Positions 1-13,011 of a stretch of 13,011 nt of DNA are shown here, piece after piece. The DNA is from a virus: UHGV virus genome UHGV-1813710; one strand, given 5' to 3'. The position numbers and the translations under genes were made by a program. Every line of letters starts with the position of its first letter. The first letter of the stretch is position 1. The notes under the pieces were generated by a model. The model did not search any database. It saw nothing but the letters and a program-made list of their open reading frames with translations, and was not told the origin of the DNA.

Positions 1-688
1 ATGACCAAAACTGCTTTATGCCGTGGCGTGTTGATGGGCGCTGCTTACGCTCGATGATCCCCATCCTCTCAAGAATCGTGTTGGCCACTACTGCGCTCAG
101 GTCTGATCCGTGGCGCTTTAATAGCGTAGTGATTGCTGCTGTTGTGCGGCTTGAACCATCTATCGCGCCAGCTGGAGCATCAATAGCATAGGCGGGCATG
201 AGTTGAGGCACGCCCGCAAATTCTTGCAACTTTTGCAGTGCGCCAAGGCGTGATGAGTTAGACAGATTGAGCAATCTGGTTGCCGAGTCGATGATCATCA
301 AGCCGCACTGCACTTTTTCAGCAATAGCCGGATCGGTAGCTACTGGCGGCGCTAACTGCTGCTCTAGCTCTGTCATGTGATCAAATACTTTGGCTTGAAT
401 AGCGTAGCTGTAGCTCATAGCCATCAAGCAGGCTTCGCGCTTTGGAAGTTGCAGGCACGGTAACTCGCGGCCGGTGCTATCTGTATACTGAGCGAAAAAT
501 TTTGCTAAGTGCTTTTCACCCAAAACTTTTGGCGATTTAGTCAAAAAATCCGCGTGTCGGAGTTGTGCGTGTCCCTTGCTAGGAAATTCGCAACCAACAG
601 CCTCGGCTTTCGATTTGCGCTCTGCATTGATGTAGTCCACCAGCTCAAGGCTTGTCATCGTGATTTGAGTTGTGGGTAAATTAATCAT
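1..688 (-). CDS. Phage regulatory protein, Rha/antirepressor-like (N-terminal DNA-binding region plus KilAC-like C-terminal region); C-terminus truncated by window start
   Basis: Open frame on the minus strand from ATG at 688-686 (MINLPTTQITMTSLELVDYINAERK...) to the window edge with no stop. Not in the ORF track because it is incomplete. GAGGGGG Shine-Dalgarno lies 4-10 nt upstream, and the ATG directly follows the TGA of the upstream ORF. Motifs such as PKREACLMAMSYSYAIQAKVFD recall phage Rha/antirepressor families (from memory, unverified). A second in-frame ATG sits at 658. Confidence 0.6.
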   Translation of the reverse strand, partial: MINLPTTQITMTSLELVDYINAERKSKAEAVGCEFPSKGHAQLRHADFLTKSPKVLGEKHLAKFFAQYTDSTGRELPCLQLPKREACLMAMSYSYAIQAKVFDHMTELEQQLAPPVATDPAIAEKVQCGLMIIDSATRLLNLSNSSRLGALQKLQEFAGVPQLMPAYAIDAPAGAIDGSSRTTAAITTLLKRHGSDLSAVVANTILERMGIIERKQRPSTRHGIKQFWS

Positions 689-871
689 TCAGCCCCCTCG
701 CTTCGCTGGATGAGTGATTTGTTCCACAGACCAATGAGCAAAGCTGTGGTTGATAGGTACCCACTCACCCGCTAAATTAACTGCATAGCGTAACGGGGCT
801 GGCGGTCTAGCATTATCGACCGGTAAGCAACGTAATTGCGGAACCTTGCAAGTTGCTGTTAATATGTTCAT
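689..871 (-). CDS. Small hypothetical phage protein (60 aa)
   Basis: ATG at 871-869 overlaps the TGA of the upstream CII-like ORF (ATGA overlap), and its own stop abuts the start of the downstream gene. The ORF track gives a longer version starting at 925 that would overlap the upstream gene. Confidence 0.4.
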   Translation of the reverse strand: MNILTATCKVPQLRCLPVDNARPPAPLRYAVNLAGEWVPINHSFAHWSVEQITHPAKRGG

Positions 872-1395
872 GCGATTGATTCTCCACACAGACAATTTTT
901 CGCCAAGGCGCCCGGAGCTGCACACTCGCGGGCGTCAACTTTTTCAGGCTCGCAATAGACACGAGCCACAAGCGTAAGAAACTGCATCAAGATGATATGG
1001 ATCTGGTGCGCTACTTCATTTAGCCCATCGAACTCTCGCCGCGTAATGACGTTGTCTGCTTTGTACTCACGATACGCGTTCGACAATTCCCCCAGCTTTG
1101 CCACCAGCTCAGCAAACTTATCGCCGATATCTTCGTTATCAATTTGATCAAGTTCTGGAAGCAATAAGAAAACGCCCCCCGAGATCCGCGCAATAGTTGA
1201 TGCAAAGTCTTCTGTCTGGCTGAATGCTTGCATCTGCAGCGCGTCATTGACGCTCATGTATTGAGCCCCGGCACCGCCACGTTCATAAACAAGGTTTTCA
1301 AGCTTGCAGCGGCTGTAACCTAAAGCGGCTGACATTGCATCCCAGCCGCCGGGATATGCCCTGATCATTGACTGGTAACACTTGCGAATTTCCAC
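868..1395 (-). CDS. CII-like early regulatory protein (phage CII/CP76-type, tentative)
   Basis: 175-aa ORF directly downstream of the cro-like gene on the same strand. GTG start at 1395 with AAGGGG Shine-Dalgarno 6 nt upstream; first in-frame ATG is 27 nt inside. Position and sequence style recall phage 186 CII-type regulators; the family assignment is from memory only. Confidence 0.5.
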   Translation of the reverse strand: MEIRKCYQSMIRAYPGGWDAMSAALGYSRCKLENLVYERGGAGAQYMSVNDALQMQAFSQTEDFASTIARISGGVFLLLPELDQIDNEDIGDKFAELVAKLGELSNAYREYKADNVITRREFDGLNEVAHQIHIILMQFLTLVARVYCEPEKVDARECAAPGALAKNCLCGESIA

Positions 1396-1450
1396 ATAGA
1401 CCCCTTATTGGTTGTGGTTTCTGTAAACATATAAATAATTAATAATGGTT

Positions 1451-1684
1451 TTACTTCGAGCCAATGCGCTTCTTGCTTATCTCCAGCAAGTATTTTGCGG
1501 TGTATTTGCCTTTTGAAGCTTTGGCTATTTTGTTTGCGTAATCGGTCTCGCCACAAAAGTCCGTTCGGGGCAAGGAACCTTTTGAGATCCACTTGTAAAT
1601 TGCTCTTGGTGTGCGCCCGCAACAACTTGCAACCAACAGCACGCCTATTTCTTTCAAGGCATCACCTAACGTCTTATTTTCCAT
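1451..1684 (-). CDS. Cro-like HTH DNA-binding protein (Cro/YdaS-type)
   Basis: 77-aa ORF divergent from the repressor gene. AGGTGA Shine-Dalgarno 5 nt upstream of the ATG at 1684. The segment GRTPRAIYKWISKGSLP looks like the recognition helix region of Cro/YdaS-like proteins. Confidence 0.7.
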   Translation of the reverse strand: MENKTLGDALKEIGVLLVASCCGRTPRAIYKWISKGSLPRTDFCGETDYANKIAKASKGKYTAKYLLEISKKRIGSK

Positions 1685-1689
1685 GCTCT

Positions 1690-1773
1690 CACCTATAAAA
1701 TGAACTTAAAGTACATTCTATGTCAGAACTGAAAGTACATGCAAATGATTCTACAATTGAACCCATGGTACAA
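1690..1773. promoter_or_regulatory. OR-like immunity switch: three 17-bp bipartite operator-like repeats with putative divergent promoters
   Basis: Repeats ATGAAC-TTAAA-GTACAT (1700-1716), CAGAAC-TGAAA-GTACAT (1724-1740) and TTGAAC-CCATG-GTACAA (1757-1773). Candidate leftward promoter on the minus strand: TTGCAT (plus 1744-1739), 18-bp spacer, TAGAAT (plus 1720-1715). Candidate rightward promoter: -10 TACAAT at 1752-1757, placing the transcript start near the ATG at 1765 (leaderless, as for lambda cI). Confidence 0.45.
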
Positions 1774-2700
1774 GACGAAAAAGTGCGGAAAGATTTTGCC
1801 CAGCGGCTAGCACTGGCCTGTAGAGAAGCGGGGCTTGATGATCATGGCCGTGGCACTGAAATAGCCAAGGCGCTAAAGGTTACGGCCAAGGCTGTCAGCA
1901 AATGGCTCAATGCTGAGGCGTTGCCTCGTCAGCCCAAGATGGAGGCGCTGGCAAGGTTCCTGAAGGTCGATATGATATGGTTGCAGCATGGTAAGCGTGA
2001 CTCAAGATCTGCTGATGAGCAGGACGGGATCATTAAGTACAAGGATTTCGCAGATAGGCTAAACTCTCTCATGGGCGATAAGGGGGTGGACGTGAATCAA
2101 TTAAAAGAAATCTGCGATGTCACATTTGAAGTAGCGCGAAGTTATACACTTGGTGTATCAAAACCACGGGATGAAGCATTAGAGAAAATAGCTAATTTTT
2201 TTCAAGTTTCAATGCCATTTCTCGACTATGGCGTAGTTGATGACTCGCAACCATCTTCCGATACTGAAAAATTACAGCAGTTAGCTGTTTACGCCTCGGC
2301 TGGACGTAGCGGATATATAAATTCAGAGTTCCCAGAGGTCATCCGATCGATTGAAATACCCAAAGAGAGGATCTATGAGCTTTTTGGGAGAAAAAGCCTT
2401 GATGGTATCAGCATCATGAACATCAACGGCGATAGTATGATCCCAACTCTCAACCCTAGAGATCTTCTTTTTATTGACACTAGAATTGATAGTTTTAATG
2501 GCGATGGCGTCTATGTATTTTGTTTTGAAGATGCAATGTTTGTTAAGCGATTACAAAGAGTTAAGGGTAGAAGGTTATCAGTAATTTCAGATAATAATGT
2601 TTACCCTCCATTTACAATTGAAGAAAATGAAATGTTTGAGCTGTACATATATGGAAAGTTGATAAAACAATTACCAATGAAGCTCATTGATTTCGCTTAG
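1765..2700 (+). CDS. CI-type prophage repressor with two tandem HTH (XRE-type) domains and a C-terminal S24 (LexA-like) autopeptidase domain
   Basis: C-terminal region contains GDSM (catalytic Ser) and FVKRL (catalytic Lys) plus an Ala-Gly candidate cleavage site (YASAGRSG). Two separate HTH-like segments precede it (…TEIAKALKVTAKAVSKWLN… and …LKEICDVTFEVARSYTLGVS…). Start ambiguous: ATG 1720 (track) or ATG 1765; 1765 is preferred because 1720 lies among the operator repeats and the putative leftward promoter. Confidence 0.85.
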   Translation: MVQDEKVRKDFAQRLALACREAGLDDHGRGTEIAKALKVTAKAVSKWLNAEALPRQPKMEALARFLKVDMIWLQHGKRDSRSADEQDGIIKYKDFADRLNSLMGDKGVDVNQLKEICDVTFEVARSYTLGVSKPRDEALEKIANFFQVSMPFLDYGVVDDSQPSSDTEKLQQLAVYASAGRSGYINSEFPEVIRSIEIPKERIYELFGRKSLDGISIMNINGDSMIPTLNPRDLLFIDTRIDSFNGDGVYVFCFEDAMFVKRLQRVKGRRLSVISDNNVYPPFTIEENEMFELYIYGKLIKQLPMKLIDFA

Positions 2701-2717
2701 CCCTGCCAACCAAACTT

Positions 2718-2745
2718 AAAGCCGACAACTGTCGGCTTTTTTTTT
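2718..2745 (+). terminator. Rho-independent terminator downstream of the repressor gene
   Basis: Stem GCCGAC (2721-2726) pairs with GTCGGC (2731-2736) around a 4-nt loop, followed by nine T residues (2737-2745), 18 nt after the stop codon. Confidence 0.8.
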
Positions 2746-2783
2746 GCAATAATTTCAATAAATTAAATACAACAACCAATAAA

Positions 2784-2830
2784 ATGTACTTCTGGTACTT
2801 GATTAAATTGAACCAATAGTACATTATAAA
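2784..2830 (+). promoter_or_regulatory. OL-like site: two more copies of the operator motif overlapping a putative rightward promoter
   Basis: TTGAAC-CAATA-GTACAT at 2808-2824 (same orientation as the OR copies) and ATGTAC-TTCTG-GTAC at 2784-2800 (inverted copy with a perfect GTACAT half-site on the minus strand). Centres are 24 bp apart, the same spacing as OR copies 1 and 2. TATAAA at 2825-2830 is a possible -10. Confidence 0.4.
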
Positions 2831-2898
2831 TCCATCAACCGCAGTCACTAGCACTATCAGTGGTTGTGGATACTTAAGAGACTTAGGTGGGAGTTCAA

Positions 2899-3159
2899 AT
2901 GACTAGTTATTACACGTGCTCTTTTTGCGGGATACGCGAGCAGGATGCTAAAAGGATTGTTGCCAAGGGTGGCAGAGATGAGCCAGCAATCTGCTCTAAG
3001 TGCATTGTCTCATGTGTAAATGTCATTATTAACGCAGGAACAGTAATGGAAATAGAGAAAAAAGGCGCCAATAAGGGTGAATTAATCCTTGATATGGAAT
3101 TGGCACCTCGATCAGAAAAAATGTCATTTACTCAGACTGAGGTAGCTCAATCGGATTAA
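2899..3159 (+). CDS. Small protein (86 aa) with a ClpX-type C4 zinc-finger (ClpX N-terminal zinc-binding-domain-like) and no ATPase domain
   Basis: Sequence MTSYYTCSFCGIREQDAKRIVAKGGRDEPAICSKCIVSCVNVII has C-x2-C-x19-C-x2-C and parallels the ClpX N-domain (recalled E. coli motif YCSFCGK…RKLIAG…ICDECVDLCNDII). GGGAG Shine-Dalgarno 6 nt upstream of ATG 2899; the track's 2887 start is GTG. Confidence 0.65.
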   Translation: MTSYYTCSFCGIREQDAKRIVAKGGRDEPAICSKCIVSCVNVIINAGTVMEIEKKGANKGELILDMELAPRSEKMSFTQTEVAQSD

Positions 3160-3403
3160 GCGCCATTGACGCCATTGGTAGCTGAATCAATGAGATCGGC
3201 AAGTTGGATAAACTTCTCTCTACCAGTTGACCTTAAGACACTACTGGCATTAGCAGAACAAGCATCACTGGAATATGCCGCTAGCAAGCATATAGCGGTC
3301 TTTAAAGCGCCGAGTTCTTCAATTAAACCTTCTGGCGTTACGTCGTTATCAAGTGACAGTGTGAAATTTGGCATTTTTATCTCTATGTGATTGGTGTACG
3401 ACA

Positions 3404-3440
3404 GGTGGCGACATTGGCCACCACGCTCTTTAAAAATCTG
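3404..3440 (+). terminator. Hairpin with weak T-tract between the convergent genes (possible terminator)
   Basis: GGTGGC (3404-3409), 7-nt loop, GCCACC (3417-3422), followed by ACGCTCTTTAAAAATCT. The T-tract is interrupted, so termination efficiency is uncertain. Confidence 0.3.
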
Positions 3441-3458
3441 GATATCCCTAGTCGATAG

Positions 3459-3971
3459 TTAGAAGATCATTGGAGCGATATCTATTGGCTCATATGCCGA
3501 TTTGTTCATTAGAAAAAGGCTGGCGCAATGAAAGCATTTGCATTGTTCAAAGTAACAAGAGTTATTCGAATTATATCCAACCTCTCCTGTTGGCTGGAGT
3601 ATCGATACTATTTTTTGTGTGAAGCATTTTGGGCAAAGATGCACGGCTATTTGCATTCCGTTAACAGATTCATTCTTAGAATAAACAAACGTTCCAGAAT
3701 CAAGCTGGTTCAGAGCATAACCTTCAGTCTGGCTTTTAAAGTCTTCGAACTCTGCAATTTTTGCTTTGAGCGTTACGGCTTCTTCCTGATAAAAGCGTGC
3801 AAGCTCAATGAGCGACATGCATTCACGCTGCACAGACGTAAGCTTTAAAACCATATCGCTAACAGCAGAATTTATCTCTGCCTGTGTTTTTGCATTTGAA
3901 ATAACTTTCGCCAAAGCAGTCGTTTCTTTAATTGCCGACATTGCAGCTGTGATTTCAACAAACACTTTCAA
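3459..3971 (-). CDS. Hypothetical protein (170 aa): helical/coiled-coil N-terminal half, Cys-rich C-terminal half; AT-rich moron-like gene
   Basis: Protein-like ORF convergent with the flanking rightward genes; the opposite-strand ORFs (3528-3848, 3808-4008) look like antisense artefacts. C-terminal half has a CPKC…C…CKCFHC pattern suggesting metal binding. TTG start at 3971 with no clear Shine-Dalgarno; alternative ATG at 3941. Sequence is visibly more AT-rich than neighbouring phage genes. Confidence 0.5.
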   Translation of the reverse strand: MKVFVEITAAMSAIKETTALAKVISNAKTQAEINSAVSDMVLKLTSVQRECMSLIELARFYQEEAVTLKAKIAEFEDFKSQTEGYALNQLDSGTFVYSKNESVNGMQIAVHLCPKCFTQKIVSILQPTGEVGYNSNNSCYFEQCKCFHCASLFLMNKSAYEPIDIAPMIF

Positions 3972-4269
3972 TACTCATATAGTCGTTGGGGATATTCAGA
4001 CTAACTGAATTCTTGTTGTTGGGGAATAGCAGGAACCACTGCCGCCTGAAGTGGAAAAATAAACAGGCTAAATAAGTTACATGTGAATCATCAGCAGCAG
4101 ACCAGCCGGCGGTGTCTTAACACCGGCAGTACATAATGAATAGCCACTACTCTCCGGGTATTCATGTATGCACGGACAGCTCGGAAAGACGTAGCCGCCT
4201 GATCCACGTTAAGGATCACACAACCGCATGGGTATTTAGATTCAGGGGCGTTTCGAGTACCCAGCCGGT

Positions 4270-4313
4270 TGTGGTGTAGCGGTTACGCGCTGGTTCAAGT
4301 CCAGTCACCACAA
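4270..4313 (+). other. tRNA-like minihelix (acceptor stem, U8-A9, short hairpin and T-arm, but no anticodon arm)
   Basis: TGTGGTG (4270-4276) pairs perfectly with CACCACA (4306-4312). TA follows at 4277-4278, then a GCG-GTTA-CGC hairpin (4279-4288), then T-arm GCTGG-TTCAAGT-CCAGT (4289-4305) with a canonical T-loop sequence, then an A at the discriminator position. Confidence 0.35.
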
Positions 4314-4339
4314 AATATGTTCCATCGCTGTGTAGTCTT

Positions 4340-4406
4340 GGCGGTTGCAGGGTTTCAACCTTTAGAGGATTGATGACTGTTATTTGTCCTGTAACCGCCC
4401 TTTTTC
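4340..4406 (+). terminator. Long hairpin followed by T-tract upstream of the early operon (candidate terminator or attenuator)
   Basis: GGCGGTTGCAGG (4340-4351) pairs with CCTGTAACCGCC (4388-4399): 12 bp including one G-T pair, 36-nt loop, followed by CTTTTTC (4400-4406). Confidence 0.35.
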
Positions 4407-4493
4407 ACCACACAGAGAGAAGTGCTTGTTGAGTGCTGCCCTGTGTGTGGAGAACGTATCGCGATGTGCATCGCACTTTCTGAGGGTCAAACA

Positions 4494-4868
4494 ATGAGTA
4501 AAGAAAATCGCATGACAGTAGTGCCCGAGTTCTTGGGCGAACTGGATGCAGGGATCTTTGAAAATAAGATTGCTGCAGCGTTAAACAGTACCGCTTTAGG
4601 CGTTCTAAACAACGGCGGTAAAGGTCAGGTTGTTGTTACGTTTGATATTGATCGACTGAGCAATTCGGTTGAAGAAAAACGCGTTGGTATTAAGCATAAG
4701 TTGAAGTTCGTTACACCTACCCCACGGGGCAAAGTGTCAGAAGAAGACACCACGGAAACGCCTATGTACGTAGGGAAAGGTGGCAAGTTAACAGTATTGC
4801 AAGAAGATCAAGGGCAACTGTTTTCAATCGATGGCGCCCCGGATGGAAAATTGCGCCAAACGCAATAA
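4494..4868 (+). CDS. Hypothetical phage early protein (124 aa)
   Basis: ATG at 4494 with GAGGG Shine-Dalgarno 7-11 nt upstream. The track's longer form starts at 4422, but that extension is encoded by a palindromic leader and is Cys-rich. Confidence 0.6.
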   Translation: MSKENRMTVVPEFLGELDAGIFENKIAAALNSTALGVLNNGGKGQVVVTFDIDRLSNSVEEKRVGIKHKLKFVTPTPRGKVSEEDTTETPMYVGKGGKLTVLQEDQGQLFSIDGAPDGKLRQTQ

Positions 4869-4925
4869 TCTTGGCAATTAAATAAACCTCACCATTTTAT
4901 TACTTAATTAAAGCAAGGATAAAAC

Positions 4926-5753
4926 ATGTCACAAGTAGACGGTTCAGCTATTCAACAAATTAAAGATCTTTCACTGGCTGCATTTTATTTAGACCCAATT
5001 AAATCAACTAACTGCCCTGCAGTTATTATTCCGTCTGATTATCAAGTTAAGAGCTTGGAAAGCTTAAATGATGGTCGTTTTCGTTTTCGCGGCAAATTAA
5101 GCACAACTAGCATTGCTGATTTTGTTCGTTATTCATCTGCATACTCTGAAGGTCAGCCGGGCGCCAGTTGTTTTATTGACGCTGACAATATGTGTGCAAC
5201 ATCCGTTTTCAACCTAGGCACGCTTGAGAGCGCAGGCCACGCTGATAACACTGCAGCAATCGCTTTGAAAAAAACAGCACCATTCTGTGCTCTGCTTGAT
5301 TTCAATGGCGAAAAGTCACGCCAAAAGCAGCTTGCAGAATGGCTAGAGGATTGGAGCGACTTCCTCACCGCCTTTGATGCAGACGGCAAGGTACTTCCAA
5401 TTAAACAAGCTGTTAGCGCCATTCGCCGTATTACCATTGAATCAGTGCAAAGTGCGGATCATGAAGATGCTGATTTCAGCGGTAAGCAGTCATTGATGCA
5501 AAGTGTAGAGGCTAAAAGCAAAGAGATCATGCCTGTGGCCTTTGAATTTAAGTGCGTACCTTATGAGGGCTTATCCGAGCGCCGTTTCAGTCTGCGTAAT
5601 AGTATTCTGACGGGGGACACGCCTTTATTCGTTCTGCGTATTGTTCAACTGGAAGCTGTAGAGGAAGAAATTGCAAACGAATTCCGTGATCTGCTCACAG
5701 AGCAATTCACAGGCAAATCAATTGAAACCTTTATTGGTAATTTTAAAGCCTAA
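4926..5753 (+). CDS. Hypothetical phage protein, DUF2303/YfdQ-like (recollection, unverified)
   Basis: 275-aa ORF with AAGGA Shine-Dalgarno 7 nt upstream of the ATG. Its size and the following HD-domain gene resemble the yfdQ-yfdR arrangement of the E. coli CPS-53 cryptic prophage. Confidence 0.65.
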
Positions 5754-5779
5754 TTATTAATAACATTTAATACAGCCTT

Positions 5780-5803
5780 AAGCACCGAGCATATTCGGTG
5801 CTT
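5780..5803 (+). other. Perfect 8-bp stem hairpin in the intergenic region between early genes
   Basis: AAGCACCG (5780-5787), 8-nt loop, CGGTGCTT (5796-5803). The downstream tract is only moderately T-rich, so it may be an attenuator or processing/stability element rather than a strong terminator. Confidence 0.3.
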
Positions 5804-5843
5804 AGTGAAGTGTTATCTGTTTAATGTGTGGAGAAATTAAAAA

Positions 5844-6377
5844 GTGAATAGCCCTTATATTATTACCTTCTCAGGTAAAGCATTTAATTTAATCGAGCCT
5901 CAGCGCGAGCAAATAGTGATCGAGGATATTGCTCATGCGCTAGCGAGAGAAAACCGCTTTAACGGTCACACTAAGGCCGCATACAGCGTTGCCCAGCACT
6001 GCTATCACGCATCATTTTGTGTACCGCCAGAGTTCGCACTTGAGGCGCTAATGCATGATGCTGCCGAGGCTTACATCAAAGATATTCCATCACCAATAAA
6101 GCTTCTTTTGCCAGATTATCGCGCATTAGAAAAACGCGTTGAAATGGCTATCTGCGAACGATTTGGCCTACCACTAGCGCTGAGTAGCTGCGTCAAATAT
6201 GCAGACCTCATCATGCTGGCATCAGAAAAACGCGACCTTGGCATCGTCGATGAAAAACCGTGGCCACTTTTGGAAGGTATTCCAGTTGCTGATTTCACTA
6301 TCGAACCAATGACTGCAGAAGTTGCCGAGCATCTCTTTATGGGGCGCTACGTAGAATTGACGGAGCTATGCAAATGA
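5844..6377 (+). CDS. HD-domain phosphohydrolase (YfdR/YfbR-like nucleotidase family)
   Basis: HD-domain signature H…H…HD: IAHALARENRFNGH…YSVAQHCYH…EALMHDAAEAYIKDIPSPIK, plus VKYADLIMLASEKRDLG. GTG start at 5844 with GGAG 11 nt upstream. Confidence 0.75.
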   Translation: MNSPYIITFSGKAFNLIEPQREQIVIEDIAHALARENRFNGHTKAAYSVAQHCYHASFCVPPEFALEALMHDAAEAYIKDIPSPIKLLLPDYRALEKRVEMAICERFGLPLALSSCVKYADLIMLASEKRDLGIVDEKPWPLLEGIPVADFTIEPMTAEVAEHLFMGRYVELTELCK

Positions 6378-6754
6378 CGCACATCAGTGAAATACCAGCA
6401 GGAACATTAGTTAAGCAAGCGCATGCAGGCGTGAAGCTTATTGCTGAACAGTATCCAGAGGCAGCGGCAATATTACGTGAAGCCATTACACGCTTTGATG
6501 TGTTGCGTGAGGTCCACCAGCTGACCAACCACAAAGTTAAAAAGCCCGTTACTGATGTGAAGCCTAATGATGTTGTTTGTGTTTTTGGTAAGTGCTACCG
6601 GCTGCGATACATCAACTATTACGGGAACCATTCAGTATTGCGCTTTCAGCCAGCTAGAGAGCCACTATCTCCATATACAGAAAATGATGTGATCAGCATC
6701 GATTTAGCAAATGACATTCTGATTGAGGTTGTGGGGGGGCTGAACAATGTCTGA
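6374..6754 (+). CDS. Hypothetical phage protein (about 126 aa)
   Basis: ATG at 6374 overlaps the TGA of the HD-domain gene (ATGA), with GGAG 8 nt upstream; the track uses the in-frame ATG at 6368. Confidence 0.55.
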   Translation: MTHISEIPAGTLVKQAHAGVKLIAEQYPEAAAILREAITRFDVLREVHQLTNHKVKKPVTDVKPNDVVCVFGKCYRLRYINYYGNHSVLRFQPAREPLSPYTENDVISIDLANDILIEVVGGLNNV

Positions 6755-7499
6755 ATTATCAACTGAGCGTTTAGAAAAATTCGTCAACGATATTAAAACT
6801 GATGGGATGTGCGACATAACTGATTATCAAGTTGCGTTGGCGTTACGTCAGTTACTGGCATACGAGCAAGCAGTACCGGTATTACCTAAACAGCCTGAGA
6901 CTCAGTTCGATGAAATCGCGCTTGATACTGCAAGAGAGATTATGCGTGATGTAAACCAGCGCCATGAATTGATTGGCGGTGAGTGTCAGTTGCTTGCGCG
7001 CACTCAGTGTCGAATTAATGACGTACTGTGTAACGTCGCAGCACCAGCACAACCTGTAATACCAGAACAAGCTAAGCCTGTGGCATATACAGACAATAGA
7101 AACTTAAAAAGTCTACAGAAAGGATGTAATACGGCATTGCTCTGGCTTAAGCATAACGCCGAAGTTGGTGATATTCCTCTATATACCGAAGTGCCGACAC
7201 AACCTGTAAGCGAGCCTTACAAGCTACCAGTCGGATATTTTTCTTATGGCTCTGAGTGTGGTTTTGATTGGCACAATACAGAGAAAGAAGCGATTGAAGC
7301 TGCCGAGGCTGTAATTGACAACTATCGCGGTGATGCGTGCGACGGCTGGTCTGAGGAAACAGACAGTGTCTGCTGGGGTGTCATTTTGCAACAGGCAACA
7401 AAGGTCGATGAGCGCCCACGTACTGATGATGATAAATGCGATCCGGCTATTGATACGGTCTGTGATTACGCGCTACTACCGGCGCAGGAGAGCGAATAA
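6747..7499 (+). CDS. Hypothetical phage protein (250 aa), Cys-containing C-terminal region
   Basis: Start overlaps the upstream gene by 8 nt, with a GGGGG Shine-Dalgarno. Ends in …AQESE, whose codons form the Shine-Dalgarno for the next gene. Confidence 0.6.
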   Translation: MSELSTERLEKFVNDIKTDGMCDITDYQVALALRQLLAYEQAVPVLPKQPETQFDEIALDTAREIMRDVNQRHELIGGECQLLARTQCRINDVLCNVAAPAQPVIPEQAKPVAYTDNRNLKSLQKGCNTALLWLKHNAEVGDIPLYTEVPTQPVSEPYKLPVGYFSYGSECGFDWHNTEKEAIEAAEAVIDNYRGDACDGWSEETDSVCWGVILQQATKVDERPRTDDDKCDPAIDTVCDYALLPAQESE

Positions 7500-8263
7500 T
7501 GCGCCCTCACTTTCACGGAACCCCGATTTGGGGGAATGCTGGCGATGTTTTGCGTGTTGCTGTTAGCGGAGCTGGTGCATTCGTTTCTTACGTTAGACCA
7601 GACCAGATTGAGCGCTGTTTTAAATATGCGGATAGTGTAGCTATCGATAACGGCGCGTTTTCAGCATGGAAAAGCGGCAAGAAATTGGATTGGAATAAAT
7701 TCTATGAATTCCTGTACAGGCATTATCACCGCTCAAAGCTTGCATTTTTTTGTATTCCAGACGTTGTGGAAGGTGGTGAAAGCGATAACGACGCAATGAT
7801 TAAAGCCGTTCCGCACATATTCAAAGAAAAAGCAGCTCCGGTTTGGCATTTACACGAATCTATCGAGCGCTTAATTCGTTTGTGCGAAGAGTGGCCGCGC
7901 GTGTGTTTTGGCTCGTCTGGTCAGTACGCGCGAACATTAACAAAGCTATGGCATGAGCGCATGAAAGAAGCTTTCACGGAGATTTATATCAAGCGCCAAC
8001 TGACAACGAAAATACACGGACTACGCATGCTTGATGGTCGCATTTTGGGTAACTACCCGCTACACAGCGCAGATAGCACAAACCTAGCATGCAACGTTCC
8101 AAAATTTAACATGAAGTATCCAGAGCTAACCCGAGCTGTATTAGATAAGGGGTATGGTCAAGACATGGTTCAACTACACCGTTGCGCGATTCTAAAAAAC
8201 TCAATTGAGTCAGTAACACCGCCGAGCATCGCGGCGTGGGTAGCTGCACAGGAGAGCGAATAA
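7499..8263 (+). CDS. Hypothetical phage protein (254 aa); weak, unverified resemblance to tRNA-guanine transglycosylase (TGT)/DpdA-type proteins
   Basis: TAATG overlap with the upstream gene. Segments HGTPIWG, VAIDNGAFSAW and GLRMLDG loosely parallel the TGT segments PVGTYG, LTDSGGFQV and GIDMFDCV (recollection, not a computed alignment). Confidence 0.6.
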   Translation: MRPHFHGTPIWGNAGDVLRVAVSGAGAFVSYVRPDQIERCFKYADSVAIDNGAFSAWKSGKKLDWNKFYEFLYRHYHRSKLAFFCIPDVVEGGESDNDAMIKAVPHIFKEKAAPVWHLHESIERLIRLCEEWPRVCFGSSGQYARTLTKLWHERMKEAFTEIYIKRQLTTKIHGLRMLDGRILGNYPLHSADSTNLACNVPKFNMKYPELTRAVLDKGYGQDMVQLHRCAILKNSIESVTPPSIAAWVAAQESE

Positions 8264-8264
8264 T

Positions 8265-8549
8265 ATGGCTCGGACGATTAACGACTCTATAGATGCAACT
8301 ATAGCCTCTCTCGTTAGTAACATTCACAACTTGCGCAAAGAAGTAGAAGAATCAGCCGTTCTACGACTGGCAAGCTTCCGCCAGCGCGAACTAATGATCG
8401 AAGGCGTTCGACAAATGTCCGCGCATTACAAAAAGGAGGCGAAAAGCTTTATGGACTCACAAGATCAAGTTGAGGCCATTGATTGCAGCTATATCGCTAA
8501 AAAGTGTGATGCATTTATTGCGCACATTATGAAGCAGGAGAGCAAATAA
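8265..8549 (+). CDS. Hypothetical phage protein (94 aa), predicted helical
   Basis: ATG 2 nt after the upstream stop, preceded by the same CAGGAGAGCGAATAAT junction motif. Confidence 0.55.
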   Translation: MARTINDSIDATIASLVSNIHNLRKEVEESAVLRLASFRQRELMIEGVRQMSAHYKKEAKSFMDSQDQVEAIDCSYIAKKCDAFIAHIMKQESK

Positions 8550-8911
8550 TGCCGACTAACAAGATAACAGAGCATTATCTTAGTTCATTGATCGTTAGAT
8601 TGCGCCGCCGCGCGTTTGAACTGACAGGGACTCAATCAGCGAATCTTATGAATGAAGCAGCTAAAGCGATCTATGAATTTCGTGAGTATAGAAGAGCTAA
8701 TCCAGCGTTGCCCGCCGGCTGGAAGATAGCCCCGCGAGATCCGGATGAGGAAATGATTATAAGGGGTTTTGAGTCTGAACCCGATGAATCATTCAGCACG
8801 CCGGAGGATTGGGAGCGGTACGAAAAAATGAGTGGATGCGAGCAAGCTGCGCATAGAGTCAAATTAAGTTGGACTGCAATGTTTGATGCAATACCCCCCA
8901 TTAAGGATTAA
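8549..8911 (+). CDS. Hypothetical phage protein (120 aa)
   Basis: TAATG overlap with the upstream gene; third copy of the junction motif (CAGGAGAGCAAATAATG). Confidence 0.55.
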   Translation: MPTNKITEHYLSSLIVRLRRRAFELTGTQSANLMNEAAKAIYEFREYRRANPALPAGWKIAPRDPDEEMIIRGFESEPDESFSTPEDWERYEKMSGCEQAAHRVKLSWTAMFDAIPPIKD

Positions 8912-9505
8912 ATGATGATCGACTCAATTGTTATTGATACCGAAACTATGGATGTGCGCCCATCTGCATTATTGCTTTCAATCGGCGCAATTGCATTCGA
9001 TGTGACAGATCTCGAAGCGCTTCGCTACAACATTTCTTATGCAGTTAAAGCGGAGCACCACAGCAGTGAGTCATATGTTTTCTATCATCTGCTAGATGCT
9101 AATTCACAGATCATGGTAGGCCGCACCGTGTCTAGAAGCACTCAGATGTGGTGGAGGGGGCAAGGTGATTCAGCAAAAGCAGCGTTGGATGGCGATAAGC
9201 AAGATCTAAAAGAAGTACTTGAAGCATTGACGCACTGGATAGCTCAATATCCAGATGCACAGATTTATTTTCGTGGTACTGACTTTGACGGTTCTATTCT
9301 CGAGAGTGCGTATCGAGCTTACGACTTGAAATGTCCGTGGAAATATAATGGCAAGCGCGATGTACGTACATTCATTGATGCATTGAGCGGGAGCGATAAG
9401 GGTTATATTGCAGATCATGAACCTTGCTTTGCAATGATTAAGCATAATTCACTTCATGATGCGATGAACGATGCAGAGCAAATGGCTATAGCTCACTCTC
9501 TTTAA
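8912..9505 (+). CDS. DEDDh-type (DnaQ-like) 3'-5' exonuclease
   Basis: Exo I-like IVIDTETMD, Exo II-like FRGTDFDGSILESAY and Exo III-like HNSLHDAMNDAEQ are present in the expected order and spacing. ATG immediately follows the upstream TAA. Confidence 0.75.
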   Translation: MMIDSIVIDTETMDVRPSALLLSIGAIAFDVTDLEALRYNISYAVKAEHHSSESYVFYHLLDANSQIMVGRTVSRSTQMWWRGQGDSAKAALDGDKQDLKEVLEALTHWIAQYPDAQIYFRGTDFDGSILESAYRAYDLKCPWKYNGKRDVRTFIDALSGSDKGYIADHEPCFAMIKHNSLHDAMNDAEQMAIAHSL

Positions 9506-9513
9506 TAATTTAC

Positions 9514-9545
9514 GGCCCGTGTGCAGCGGGCCATATTTAATTTAT
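9514..9545 (+). terminator. Hairpin with AT-rich tail between the exonuclease gene and xis (weak terminator or attenuator)
   Basis: GGCCCG (9514-9519), 7-nt loop, CGGGCC (9527-9532), followed by ATATTTAATTTAT. Confidence 0.35.
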
Positions 9546-9563
9546 CTGTGTGGAGTTTTAATC

Positions 9564-9782
9564 ATGGCGAAAGAAGCTAAATTGATGCGCGCGAGCGCGT
9601 GGGGCAAGCGTGAGTTCGAGGTGGGTTCTATTCCTGATAATAGAACTATTAGGCGCTGGATAGAAAATGGCCGTTTGCGTGGCCGGATTGTTGATGGAAC
9701 CATTTTGGTTTATTCATCTGAACGCTGGGGTATTGAGTCTGTTGTATCCCACCACGTACATAATTTAATTAGTGAATCATGA
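9564..9782 (+). CDS. xis: Excisionase (lambda Xis-like)
   Basis: Lies immediately upstream of int with an ATGA overlap. Segment RTIRRWIENGRLRGRIVDGTILVYSSE parallels lambda Xis ETVRRWVRECRIFPPPVKDGREYLFHES. GGAG 9 nt upstream of ATG 9564; the track's 9519 start lacks a Shine-Dalgarno. Confidence 0.75.
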   Translation: MAKEAKLMRASAWGKREFEVGSIPDNRTIRRWIENGRLRGRIVDGTILVYSSERWGIESVVSHHVHNLISES

Positions 9783-10960
9783 TGGCAGCTCGACCACGCA
9801 AGCGTGAAAACCGGCACCTTCCCGATCTGCTGTATTTCGATAAAGTTGCCGGCGTTTATCGCTTTACCCTAATCACGGGAAAGAGAAAATCATTAGGCTC
9901 TGACCGTGCTTTAGCAATCGCTATTGCGCGTGAATATAACAATAGAATGCGACCGGATATAGTTGTATCAGTTGACTCGCTTATTAGTGAATCGGGCGGC
10001 TTGAAGGGGGAATCCCTGCCCTTCTCCAGTCATGTTGATCATATTCTCGCTCGTGCTATCACGGACGAGAAACCAAGCCCTGATACAAAGGCTGACTGGA
10101 TGAATGATGCAAAACGAGTGAAAGAATTCTTCATTGACATTCACTGCTGCGATATTGAACTAGAGCACGTCAATGCGTTCATTCAGCATTATCATGCTGA
10201 AGCATCAGCAAACGTACAAAACCGCAAAGTTAGTTTTCTAAAGAAATTATTTAGTTATGCAGTAGACGAATCGTTAATGTTCGATAATCCAGCAACTAGA
10301 AAGAAAATGCGGAGAATTGAGGGGAAAGTTCGCCAACGCTTATCTTTCGACAATCTGATGGCTATACGAAACGCCGCGGATCGATGGCTGCGAACTGCGA
10401 TAGATCTAGCTCTACAGACAACGCACGCCCGGCTTGAAGTTTCCCGAATTCGCTATTCAATCAAAGAGCCCAAAAATGGCGTGTGTGGCTGTGTGTGGTT
10501 CGACGCTCCAGAGAGTGGGATTTATGGCGTTATGTATATACACAGGCAGAAAGTGCAGCACAAAGAAGCATCACACGTCGCAATACCAATCGGGCCTGAA
10601 CTTAAAAGAATTATTGATGATAGCCGCGACAATGCTGCTAGCCCATACATTGTTCATCGTTTACCAAAACGCAATAATAAGCCAAGCAAAGAGGTTTCAC
10701 ATCCTACACAAGTAGCGCCAGACTACTTGAGCCGGGCATTCTCAACACTTCGAGATGAGCTCGGGATTTGCTCACATCTTGAAATGGATGAACGTCCGAC
10801 ATTCCATGAAATCCGAGCGCTTGCTGCACACCTATTTGATACGCAAGGCATTGACCCACAGGGCCGCATGGCTCACAGCGACGCTAAGTCGACTAAGATA
10901 TACACGCAAAATCATATCGATTGGGTCATGGTGCCGCACGGCGAGATCAAGACGGGATGA
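9779..10960 (+). CDS. int: Tyrosine site-specific integrase, lambda Int family
   Basis: N-terminus RENRHLPDLLYF…GKRKSLGSDRALAIA parallels lambda Int HERRDLPPNLYI…GKEFGLGRDRRIAIT. C-terminus has PTFHEIRALAAHLF (H-x-x-R box) and …STKIYTQNH (catalytic Tyr). Adjacent to xis and to the tRNA-derived att core. Confidence 0.95.
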   Translation: MMAARPRKRENRHLPDLLYFDKVAGVYRFTLITGKRKSLGSDRALAIAIAREYNNRMRPDIVVSVDSLISESGGLKGESLPFSSHVDHILARAITDEKPSPDTKADWMNDAKRVKEFFIDIHCCDIELEHVNAFIQHYHAEASANVQNRKVSFLKKLFSYAVDESLMFDNPATRKKMRRIEGKVRQRLSFDNLMAIRNAADRWLRTAIDLALQTTHARLEVSRIRYSIKEPKNGVCGCVWFDAPESGIYGVMYIHRQKVQHKEASHVAIPIGPELKRIIDDSRDNAASPYIVHRLPKRNNKPSKEVSHPTQVAPDYLSRAFSTLRDELGICSHLEMDERPTFHEIRALAAHLFDTQGIDPQGRMAHSDAKSTKIYTQNHIDWVMVPHGEIKTG

Positions 10961-10991
10961 TTGATGGTAAAACCCATACTTAAGCTATTGA

Positions 10992-11037
10992 TGTATATAC
11001 ACCAACTTTTGCGAATTATGCACTGTTTGTATATACA
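10992..11037 (+). repeat. Two direct copies of TGTATATACA between int and the att core (candidate integrase arm-type or IHF sites)
   Basis: TGTATATACA at 10992-11001 and again at 11028-11037, 36 bp apart, in the roughly 130-bp AT-rich stretch between the int stop and the tRNA fragment. Confidence 0.35.
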
Positions 11038-11094
11038 GTCGACAACCTAGAGAAACCAGTGCTGGCGCGGGTTTCAGCGTGTTGAATACGCTAA

Positions 11095-11140
11095 CATGGG
11101 GTGTCGGGGGTCGGAGGTTCAAATCCTCTCGTGCCGACCA
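11095..11140 (+). other. Partial tRNA: 3' about 45 nt of a tRNA-Pro-like gene (anticodon loop to CCA), i.e. the att core repeat at the prophage boundary
   Basis: T-arm GGAGG-TTCAAAT-CCTCT (11113-11129), acceptor 3' strand CGTGCCG, discriminator A and CCA (11138-11140). No complementary 5' acceptor strand (CGGCACG) upstream, so the tRNA is not intact. GGG sits at the inferred anticodon position and the string matches my recollection of enterobacterial tRNA-Pro. Confidence 0.65.
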
Positions 11141-11152
11141 AATAATCCCAAG

Positions 11153-11182
11153 AAAACCAACCTATTATGGGTTGGTTTTTTT
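11153..11182 (+). terminator. Rho-independent terminator (tRNA-gene-type) just outside the att core
   Basis: AAAACCAACC stem, TATTATG loop, GGTTGGTTTT pairing, followed by a run of T residues to 11182. Confidence 0.7.
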
Positions 11183-11453
11183 ATGTCTTCAATTTGTCAC
11201 TACGGCCAATATTACGCGCAGCAAGAAGTAAAAAAGCCCCCAAAGTGATTGGGTGGCGGGCTGAGGAAGTGCTCGAGATGGCTGAAGCAGGACTGATATA
11301 CGACGAATTTAGGGTAGTCTAAAGCTATTTGAATCCTCATGACCACGCTGAGGTTGAGGTATACTGCTTCAGAGCGGGGTAAATAAATTACGTCGCTATA
11401 GACAGACATAGGGATTGTCGCAGTTCTGGTCAGAAGACATTAGGATTGAGAAT

Positions 11454-11780
11454 ATGGAAATAAATCACTGCGAATTATATGTCAAAGACCTTGTCGGCCT
11501 GTCCCTGATTTTGATTGTGTGGGCTGTACTCGTCTGGAACTTCATTTCCTGCTGTTTCACAGGGCGTGCTAGCTTTATGTTTTCCCGTTATAGCTTCAGA
11601 CGCACCAAGGACGAATTGGGAATCATTGGGGATCGAACGGGAAGTAAGATACTCTATTTCTTAGCTATGGCGCTCAAGTTACTTTTAATTGTATTTTTTT
11701 CATACAGTGTATTTGTGCCATTGTTCAGCCCTGGAGTATTTGAGGAAGTAATGGGCCACATTTTTACCTGCCATAAATGA
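11454..11780 (+). CDS. Possible small membrane protein (two hydrophobic segments); doubtful
   Basis: ATG at 11454 with AGGA 9 nt upstream; the track form starts at TTG 11415. Two hydrophobic stretches (LVGLSLILIVWAVLVWNFI and ILYFLAMALKLLLIVFFSYSVFVPLF). Could equally be a degraded region. Confidence 0.25.
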   Translation: MEINHCELYVKDLVGLSLILIVWAVLVWNFISCCFTGRASFMFSRYSFRRTKDELGIIGDRTGSKILYFLAMALKLLLIVFFSYSVFVPLFSPGVFEEVMGHIFTCHK

Positions 11781-11989
11781 GTTCTGATACTCTACCCTCC
11801 CCCCACGGTGAACTTTTAATGTTAATAAGTTTGTTCATTTCGTTACGTTGCTTCTGCAGATGGAGCCCCTCTATAACGAATAAAAAAACAATCATTAGGG
11901 TCTTTTAATACCTAATTAACCAAAAGTAACATAGCATTTTCATAATAGATAAAATTAGATATAATCAAATATTATCTATTATTAATAGC

Positions 11990-12997
11990 ATGGCTAATTT
12001 TTATTACATGGATACAGACAAAAATTTCAATCATGAAAATGATTCACTATTCAAAAAAAACACTATTAAAACAAGCAATAACAATCTAAAAGTACTAAAT
12101 ATTGCATTCTGTTTTGATGATAATTTTGTGATGCCAACAGGTGTAGCCATTGCATCTGTCATTGAAAACAATAAAGACTCGCACCTCCACTTTCATTTAT
12201 TCTTCGAATCCATTTCTGAAAAAAACAAATCTAGAATACTTGAGATACAAGGTGATAACGTTTCAATAACAACATATGAACTTCAGGAAGAACTATCCGT
12301 CAATCCTAATACACTCATTCTGGGAATCCCAAAGTCCACGTGCTTAAGATTTATGGTTCCTTTTGTTCTACGGCATGAGGTTGATTCTGTTTTATATTTG
12401 GATGGCGATATGATTTGCTTAGATTCATTACACGCCTTACATGACCTAAACCTTAAAGGACATATTGCCGCTGTAGTTGCTGACTCTAAAGAGATGCAAC
12501 AGAAAGCCAGCACACTAGGATACGGTATTGATACCGATAAATATTTCAATGCAGGATTTTTATTTATCAATGTATCTGAGTGGAATTTTAAAAATGTCAC
12601 CGCCGTGGCATTTAACATGATCAATAGCGGTACAATTTATAAATATGCCGATCAGGATGTATTAAATATACTCTTAAACGAAAACATTAAATTAATTGAC
12701 AAGAAATATAATAAAACTATAACGCTAAGCCCTATCGATAGGGTAGATGATAATGCATCTCGTGGCACAACCATTTTGCATTATGTTACAAAAAATAAAC
12801 CGTGGTTTATGATATTTGAGTCTCAGATTTTCTTTTATTACCTGAATCAATCTCCATGGAAAGACACGCAATTAAAACTGACACCTAATGCTAGCCTGCT
12901 TAGAATAAAGGCAAAAAAACTCCTTTCTGATAAGAAATTTGTCGATTGGATAAAATATTTCTCCCTATATATTAAATATAAATTATTTAGCAAATAA
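11990..12997 (+). CDS. Glycosyltransferase family 8 (LPS/LOS glycosyltransferase-like, RfaJ/LgtC type)
   Basis: GT8 hallmarks: NIAFCFDDNFVMPTGVAIASV (nucleotide-sugar binding region), YLDGDMIC (DxD motif), NAGFLFINVSEW, YADQDVLN and HY…KPW. Very AT-rich gene preceded by an AT-rich promoter-like region. Confidence 0.8.
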   Translation: MANFYYMDTDKNFNHENDSLFKKNTIKTSNNNLKVLNIAFCFDDNFVMPTGVAIASVIENNKDSHLHFHLFFESISEKNKSRILEIQGDNVSITTYELQEELSVNPNTLILGIPKSTCLRFMVPFVLRHEVDSVLYLDGDMICLDSLHALHDLNLKGHIAAVVADSKEMQQKASTLGYGIDTDKYFNAGFLFINVSEWNFKNVTAVAFNMINSGTIYKYADQDVLNILLNENIKLIDKKYNKTITLSPIDRVDDNASRGTTILHYVTKNKPWFMIFESQIFFYYLNQSPWKDTQLKLTPNASLLRIKAKKLLSDKKFVDWIKYFSLYIKYKLFSK

Positions 12998-13011
12998 AAC
13001 CATCAGCATTA

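Follow-up and report, generated by a model that had tools for sequence, protein, structure and literature searches.

The 13,011-nt virus genome UHGV-1813710 (the window, meaning the whole stretch of DNA analysed here) runs past the right end of a prophage into a very AT-rich segment that encodes a family 8 glycosyltransferase (GT8) of 335 aa (11990..12997, plus strand). On balance, we favor the view that this gene encodes an active GT8 enzyme of the lipopolysaccharide (LPS) core, was acquired horizontally, and forms part of an exchangeable cassette in the chromosome of Hafnia paralvei, beside the tRNA gene proL. The gene lies outside the prophage, and a sister lineage carries a different GT8 allele at the identical position, a close relative of which is found on prophages integrated at proL.

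The GT8 gene belongs to the H. paralvei chromosome and is not cargo of the prophage in the window. Alignment with loci from strains bearing an empty site identified the core of the right attachment site (attR) as the 3' 46 nt of a tRNA-Pro(GGG) gene (11095..11140, plus strand). In the empty-site strains, an intact 77-nt tRNA-Pro(GGG) gene is located directly 3' of yejM, a position that identifies it as proL; the YejM protein encoded at this locus matches that of Hafnia paralvei ATCC 29927 with 100% identity. In the window and in the locus of a related prophage (L002), phage DNA has replaced the 5' 31 nt of proL, and identity to the empty site resumes at CATGGGG (11095). DNA matching 11141-13011 (~1.9 kb) follows the intact proL in the empty-site strains (L001, L003-L008), where GT8 is present between identical flanks without a prophage. 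Because the gene is found both with and without a prophage at proL, and 850 bp past attR, it is chromosomal; lying outside the attL-attR interval and being present in these empty-site strains, it is not a lysogenic-conversion gene of the window prophage.

Rather than being limited to certain strains, the gene is fixed in H. paralvei. Fifty-one blocks of the assembly collection contained the exact protein, and in all 24 contigs read the arrangement was the same: yejK, yejL, yejM, proL, a spacer of ~0.85 kb, GT8, and then genes for an AraC-type regulator, an HdeA-like protein, a DUF1883 protein, a DEAD-box helicase, type I secretion proteins and a giant adhesin. The protein cluster counts 183 members, and the named members read were all labelled H. 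paralvei, except for one labelled H. alvei ATCC 51873 and one with only the product name WaaO. The open reading frame (ORF) is intact in 10 other loci and differs by 0-2 nt in 1008 bp, compared with a background of ~0.7%; five of the eight nucleotide differences among the alleles occur at third codon positions. The only homopolymers in the gene are A7-A8 runs (12053-12060, 12219-12225 and 12913-12919), and among the 10 other alleles we found no hypermutable repeat and no change of length or frame indicative of phase variation.

Within the genus, the GT8 cassette has been swapped between lineages at the identical position. The sister lineage Hafnia sp. HMSC23F03 (L089/L090), with upstream core genes 94% identical at the nucleotide level, encodes a GT8 of 323 aa that is 48% identical to the window protein. 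This allele sits between conserved flanks, in which the amino acid identity is 79.6-82% for the upstream ORF108, 91% for the AraC-type regulator, 98% for the HdeA-like protein and 93% for the DUF1883 protein. The nucleotide similarity of L089 stops at window position 11803 (~81% upstream) and resumes 128 bp past the stop codon (~86% downstream), so that GT8 together with its upstream region constitutes a replaceable cassette of ~1.3 kb. In another Hafnia species, presumed to be H. alvei (L106, core nucleotide identity 82.8%), the similarity ends already after the proL terminator at ~11188 (L001 9206), and two chaperone-usher fimbrial clusters with DUF1120 subunits, usher and PapD-like chaperone (L106 8752-18534) are found in place of the GT8 island. 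None of the genes for GT8, the AraC-type regulator, the HdeA-like protein, the DUF1883 protein or ORF108 was detected within 10 kb 3' of yejM in 80 other Enterobacterales species; in Edwardsiella, of the same family, the DEAD-box helicase gene is ~6 kb away with different content in between. The GC content of the genes from proL to the helicase is 0.32 for GT8, 0.37 for the AraC-type regulator, 0.44 for both the HdeA-like and DUF1883 genes and 0.42 for ORF108, all under the core mean of 0.507; this atypical composition together with variable presence at a tRNA gene is what characterizes a tRNA-linked island. In L089, an isochorismatase-family gene (11035-11553) follows the DUF1883 gene instead of the DEAD-box helicase gene, indicating that the right edge of the island also differs between the lineages.

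These comparisons bear on a simpler explanation, that GT8 is a housekeeping LPS core gene of H. paralvei outside the waa cluster, needed for a normal core and not variable. Occupation of the same site in all contigs read, the size of the protein cluster and an allelic diversity under the background level are as such a gene would have them, the nearest relatives in Escherichia coli and Salmonella lie within waa loci, and outer-core genes normally have low GC. We nonetheless regard this explanation as unlikely, given that the sister lineage carries a 48%-identical allele, that the site lacks GT8 in another Hafnia species and in the 80 other species, and that 850 bp separate the gene from a phage attachment site, its other neighbors being unrelated genes such as those for the AraC-type and HdeA-like proteins. 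The phage-borne relative of the alternative allele, described below, speaks against it as well. The first-pass annotation had reasoned that a gene residing in a conserved core LPS locus would not be a separate acquisition; the window GT8 is located outside the waaQ operon, between proL and the AraC-type regulator gene, and is absent or replaced in relatives.

The AT-richness of the segment is real and large. GC falls sharply at ~11800 in the composition profile of the window, to 0.318 over 11800-13011, with 0.306 in the 209 bp 5' of the GT8 ORF and 0.322 in the ORF itself (GC1/2/3, at the three codon positions, 0.39/0.27/0.31). The prophage part (1-11056) has a GC of 0.449 and the stretch 11141-11780 one of 0.42-0.43, which agrees with the observation in the first-pass annotation that the gene and its upstream region are far more AT-rich than either. 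With 12 core genes from the empty-site strain L001 as the reference for the H. paralvei core (mean GC 0.507, sd 0.022; GC3 0.526, sd 0.049), the GT8 gene deviated by z = -8.4 in GC and z = -4.4 in GC3, and its codon bias relative to the core was B = 0.50, the range for core genes of comparable length being 0.23-0.32. The gene is thus compositionally foreign to the H. paralvei core. However, the GC is 29-33% in every member of the clade to which the window GT8 belongs, regardless of host or context, so that low GC alone is weak evidence for recent transfer and cannot date the acquisition. The proposal in the first-pass annotation of a separately acquired gene therefore holds as far as location outside the prophage, foreign GC and replacement or absence in other Hafnia are concerned, but the gene is not strain-specific, and its low GC is shared by the whole clade. 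A second AT-rich patch, with GC of 0.34-0.39, lies within the window prophage around 2200-3000. A second GT8 in this patch, for which the 326-aa ORF at 1720-2700 was considered, was ruled out; the ORF encodes a cI-like repressor with two helix-turn-helix regions and an S24 peptidase domain.

The GT8 of the sister lineage has its nearest relative on a phage. This counterpart, P0002, with 82.5% amino acid and 78% nucleotide identity, is the GT8 of a prophage with a P2-like tail module integrated at proL in H. paralvei CP014031.2, where the order is proL, DinI, S24 peptidase, GT8, tail-fibre assembly, tail fibre and P2-type baseplate genes. The similarity of the sister-lineage and phage alleles is limited to the ORF plus ~12 nt. 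The phage GT8 comprises 322 aa and has 32.5% GC beside tail genes of 51.5% GC (L091 7020-9616; L101/L102 1-966; L099 8001-9008). It is 49% identical to the window GT8, and the GT8 proteins of Hafnia proL prophages (P0002/P0009) share with the window GT8 the clade, the tRNA site, the orientation to the tRNA gene and a GC of ~32%. The difference lies in the location: the window gene is outside the prophage and present without it, and it is an 82%-identical relative of the phage gene that fills the chromosomal slot. CP014031.2 also has an annotated protein of the window type, and the 39.8-kb IMG/VR provirus UViG_2721755583_000002 starts with the phage GT8, overruns attR and ends with a chromosomal GT8 of the window type. 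With a phage GT8 at one end and a chromosomal one beyond attR, such lysogens hold two 49%-identical paralogues bracketing the prophage. Neither the chromosomal nor the phage GT8 matched a PHROG family. The location of the phage-borne sister allele beside tail-fibre genes fits the link to phage-receptor or serotype variation suggested by the first-pass annotation. The gtrABC serotype-conversion genes, which adjoin attP in Shigella and Salmonella phages, are a positional analogue of the phage GT8 slot; GtrABC acts in the periplasm via undecaprenyl-phosphate-glucose, whereas GT8 enzymes act in the cytoplasm with uridine diphosphate (UDP) sugars.

One might read the chromosomal gene as the surviving left-end cargo of an ancient proL prophage, the rest of which was deleted, that is, as a fossil lysogenic-conversion gene. 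The proL prophages carry GT8 in the same orientation and ~1.2 kb 3' of the tRNA gene (L091), the corresponding distance of the chromosomal gene being 850 bp; the chromosomal allele of the sister lineage shares 82% identity with the phage gene, and both GT8s have ~32% GC within DNA of higher GC. Against this stand the neighboring genes (ORF108, AraC-type, HdeA-like and DUF1883), which had no match among phages, PHROG families or plasmids, the lack of a second att repeat, the restriction of phage/chromosomal similarity to the ORF plus ~12 nt, and our failure to find a phage-borne window-type allele in IMG/VR or the phage collection. We consider a fossil of this kind improbable and return to the reading of a horizontally acquired chromosomal cassette.

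Is the product likely to work as an enzyme? The 335-aa protein is an intact GT8 with a predicted GT-A fold like that of LgtC. It matched PF01501 (Glyco_transf_8) with E = 6.6e-47 and 160.6 bits against a cut-off of 24.3 over residues 37-273 (profile positions 1-250 of 253) and, by a narrow margin, PF08437 (the GT8 C-terminal domain; 24.9 bits against a cut-off of 23, residues 279-331), confirming the family given in the first-pass annotation. The RefSeq start is at Met7 (12008), which gives 329 aa. By sequence, the protein also matched LgtC of Neisseria meningitidis (PDB 1G9R/1GA8) with E = 2e-15. Its DxD (138-140), NAG (187-189) and DQD (221-223) motifs, H264 and KPW (270-272) could be located, and D138, D140, N187, G189, D221, Q222, D223, H264, K270, P271 and W272 are invariant in 36 homologues, with the motifs aligning to D103/D105 and D188/Q189 of LgtC. 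An AlphaFold2 model computed from the alignment of these 36 homologues had a mean predicted local distance difference test score (pLDDT) of 89.7 and a predicted template modeling score (pTM) of 0.90, with disorder confined to residues 1-16; the PF08437 region was modeled as two helices (301-333), C-terminal and amphipathic. The best Foldseek matches of the model were all GT8 enzymes with probability 1.00, namely 6U4B (WbbM), 1SS9/1G9R (LgtC), 3TZT and 5GVV (GlyE), with E = 1e-18 to 1e-13 for WbbM, LgtC and GlyE. For LgtC, E was 1e-17 to 1e-16 at a template modeling score (TM-score) of 0.6-0.7 and 22-24% sequence identity, and the two proteins have in common the GT-A fold, DxD, Q222 (Q189 in LgtC) and the His and Lys of H..KPW. 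LgtC differs in being phase-variable via a poly-G tract, whereas the window GT8 has only A7-A8 runs and a constant length in 10 alleles. With invariant motifs and a confidently predicted GT8 fold, the enzyme looks catalytically competent.

The subfamily is less sharply defined. The best NCBIfam model was the equivalog NF011718 for LPS 3-alpha-galactosyltransferase (WaaI), but the score of 175.4 bits is far under its cut-off of 461, and the window GT8 is thus not a WaaI orthologue. The profile search points to an LPS-type GT8, through PF08437 and the WaaI model as best match, and stops short of the WaaI equivalog. A neighbor-joining tree placed the window clade apart from the WaaI/O and WaaJ/R clades, whose members are 26-33% identical to the window protein, although enzymes from LPS loci make up all of these clades; a Salmonella gene in the WaaI position showed 31% identity. 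The outer-core alpha-hexosyltransferases WaaI/WaaO and WaaJ/WaaR/WaaT of E. coli and Salmonella resemble the window GT8 in PF01501 plus PF08437, length class and the motifs DxD/NAG/DQD/H..KPW, and presumably in their chemistry, with a UDP-hexose donor, retention of configuration and a lipid A-core acceptor. They differ by clade and by residing in the waa operon instead of beside proL.

Among 5.8 billion proteins, none had an identity to the window GT8 between 99% and 49%. The nearest relatives outside Hafnia (46-49%) are encoded by GT8 genes of 326 aa (or 290 aa) that are flanked by waaP and waaB in waa loci of E. coli and Salmonella, the two genera for which the context was read; similar proteins of the 326-aa type are annotated in Citrobacter and Pseudocitrobacter. 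The next closest were Gilliamella proteins with ~43% identity. The proteins of this type (P0004, P0011, P0012, P0015 and P0016) share the clade, the ~30% GC and the motifs with the window GT8. In contrast, those placed in context belong to a canonical core-LPS operon, and the window gene, with an N-terminus 12 residues longer, to a tRNA-adjacent variable region. The gene between waaP and waaB, of 29-31% GC, is an extra GT8 of the window clade found in some E. coli and Salmonella (e.g., subsp. salamae) waa loci (L093 7001-7981; L096 7001-7873).

The acceptor could also be something other than the LPS core, such as O-antigen, enterobacterial common antigen, capsule units or the BapA-like giant adhesin encoded ~9 kb downstream. 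The best structural matches include WbbM, an O-antigen enzyme, and GlyE, which glycosylates an adhesin; a type I secretion system and the giant adhesin are encoded nearby, and the score is far under the WaaI equivalog cut-off. PF08437, however, is typical of LPS-core GT8 enzymes, and the close homologues with informative context all lie in waa loci or beside phage tail fibres. Moreover, four unrelated genes separate GT8 from the adhesin locus, which has a core-like GC. An acceptor outside the LPS core therefore seems quite unlikely to us, and we retain the LPS core as the predicted target.

Signals for expression were sought in the AT-rich upstream part of the cassette (11804..11989, plus strand), which has ~31% GC and begins where the similarity of L089 ends (11803). 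The best promoter-like site has a -35 element at 11937-11942 and a -10 element TATAAT at 11960-11965, with 10 of 12 matches. The number of sites found by the promoter scan was no higher than in shuffled sequence, and no Shine-Dalgarno sequence precedes either ATG 11990 or ATG 12008. An inverted repeat (I1) with 22-nt arms (11939-11960/11964-11985; 86% complementary, 3-nt spacer) lies immediately 5' of the GT8 start codon and overlaps the best -10 element. The corresponding RNA hairpin has a folding energy of -12.8 kcal/mol (z = -2.6), and the ATG would be paired in it; the repeat is invariant among the strains and could serve as an operator or a leader hairpin. If GT8 were a silent relic repressed by H-NS and without present function, the very AT-rich gene and leader, the lack of a recognizable ribosome-binding site and a promoter signal at chance level would be as expected, but not an ORF that is intact in every copy, conserved catalytic residues, the absence of frameshifts at the A7-A8 runs and the location of five of eight allele differences at third codon positions. 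A relic is, in our estimate, very improbable, and we take the gene to be a functional part of the cassette.

We propose the following scheme for such a functional GT8 cassette. It would be self-contained, with its own promoter region, the gene and a terminator-like hairpin. It sits within ~4.5 kb of DNA 3' of proL that has a lower GC than the core and comprises the genes for ORF108, GT8 and the AraC-type, HdeA-like and DUF1883 proteins; the window prophage has integrated into proL just upstream. The enzyme would be a soluble or peripherally membrane-bound cytoplasmic protein that acts as an Mn2+/DxD-dependent retaining glycosyltransferase, adding an alpha-linked hexose from UDP-Glc or UDP-Gal to the LPS outer core on the cytoplasmic side of the inner membrane, prior to the flipping of lipid A-core. 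The cassette would have entered horizontally, with the relative of the proL-prophage GT8 as the alternative allele, and the result would be a lineage-specific change of the LPS core that alters phage receptors and antigenicity. Here we infer the LPS core as acceptor, the sugar and its linkage, expression and the effect on phage adsorption.

Several points weigh against this scheme. Near-fixation and near-zero diversity in H. paralvei would fit an old, essential core-LPS gene of the species equally well. The low GC is clade-wide, including alleles within waa loci, and composition can neither date nor prove a transfer. The interval from proL to the DEAD-box helicase gene contains no integrase, and a search for the tRNA 3' end with up to 3 mismatches gave no further copy, so that the island lacks both an integrase of its own and a distal direct repeat derived from the tRNA gene. 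The distance from the WaaI cut-off means that specificity is not transferable from that model, and O-antigen, capsule or proteins can likewise be acceptors for GT8 enzymes, as WbbM and GlyE illustrate. Acceptor, donor and expression are predictions from the sequence and a modeled fold, and for expression there is neither a Shine-Dalgarno sequence nor a promoter signal above chance level.

A bolder extension, to which we give a low probability, would make the slot 3' of proL a dedicated exchange point at which GT8 cassettes of ~1 kb move between phage and chromosome. The two divergent paralogues of a lysogen, one on the phage at attL and one in the chromosome beyond attR, would then reprogram the LPS-core receptor and control superinfection by proL phages, and the window allele, lacking any relative of more than 49% identity among the 5.8 billion proteins, would have a novel specificity for acceptor or linkage. 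Phage adsorption, serum resistance and serology all depend on how the LPS core is decorated. H. paralvei is a gut commensal and opportunist with poorly mapped LPS genetics, and our literature search found no paper on its GT8 or proL. The locus is a testable candidate for lineage-specific core variation and shows how such variation arises, by the swapping of an AT-rich cassette of ~1 kb whose alternative allele is carried by neighboring temperate phages.

The stretch between attR and the cassette (11140-11800) was described in the first-pass annotation as having no convincing gene and as a possible decayed remnant of an earlier insertion. We found it to be native DNA that is present in empty-site strains. 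It holds ORF108 (11454..11780, plus strand), which encodes a hydrophobic protein of 108 aa and is intact in all 11 loci, with a ratio of non-synonymous to synonymous substitution rates (dN/dS) of 0.19-0.43; some annotation pipelines already call this ORF. In addition, 11186-11990 showed no similarity in phage or plasmid collections and no Rfam family. A decayed remnant is thus not supported, although a very old one may lie at 11186-11990. ORF108 is probably a small membrane protein. Its homologues with 82-97% identity are confined to H. paralvei and relatives, and within H. paralvei there are two alleles ~8% apart (dN/dS 0.19) with near-identical flanks, compared with the background of ~0.7%. 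Outside Hafnia, we found two remote representatives, and the one placed in context (P0148, 47% identity, L113) lies in a locus resembling a type VI secretion system, where a 596-aa gene and a DUF2251 gene precede it and TssE-like and TssA-like genes follow. ORF108 may be an orphan small membrane protein of the immunity type.

Upstream of ORF108 there is an apparently non-coding stretch (11189..11453) with indels between strains, which is specific to H. paralvei and the sister lineage and ~80% identical in L089. Two ORFs, of 51 aa (11167-11322) and 65 aa (11212-11409, minus strand), were ruled out as genes by 1-nt and 6-nt strain indels. The allele groups here are split by an A6 versus A5 run (11232) and a 6-bp tandem duplication of TGAGGT (11353-11364). 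Next to attR, the native proL terminator is preserved (11153..11182, plus strand; inverted repeat I8), consisting of a CCAACC/GGTTGG hairpin with a T7 run behind it.

The right end of the window prophage is marked by a tyrosine integrase gene of 393 aa (9779..10960, plus strand) with Arm-DNA-bind_1, phage-integrase SAM-like and catalytic domains in Pfam; attR follows directly, and the integrase is not part of the GT8 cassette. The phage part of the window also carries a 186-type CII-like gene, the cI-like repressor, DUF2303 and an exonuclease, and the proL prophages of other strains are its mosaic relatives. Occupied by no fewer than four mosaic prophage variants and empty in other strains, proL is a heavily used phage site, in keeping with the tRNA integration hotspot noted in the first-pass annotation; the tRNA gene is proL, present in the window merely as the 3' fragment in attR. 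In E. coli genomes, the match was limited to the tRNA/att region, with ~81% identity. ARAGORN called a tRNA-Ser(tga) at 11057-11140, which we ruled out as a phage/proL chimera that reached 19.4 bits with the Rfam tRNA model against a threshold of 29. Two annotation traps are therefore set at this site, an attR chimera that is called as a tRNA-Ser gene and provirus predictions that extend past attR and take in the chromosomal GT8, as in UViG_2721755583_000002. Finally, the related prophage in L002 carries an extra 334-aa DUF4760 gene between integrase and attR (7972-8976), which is absent from the window prophage and marks a second cargo slot at the integrase end.

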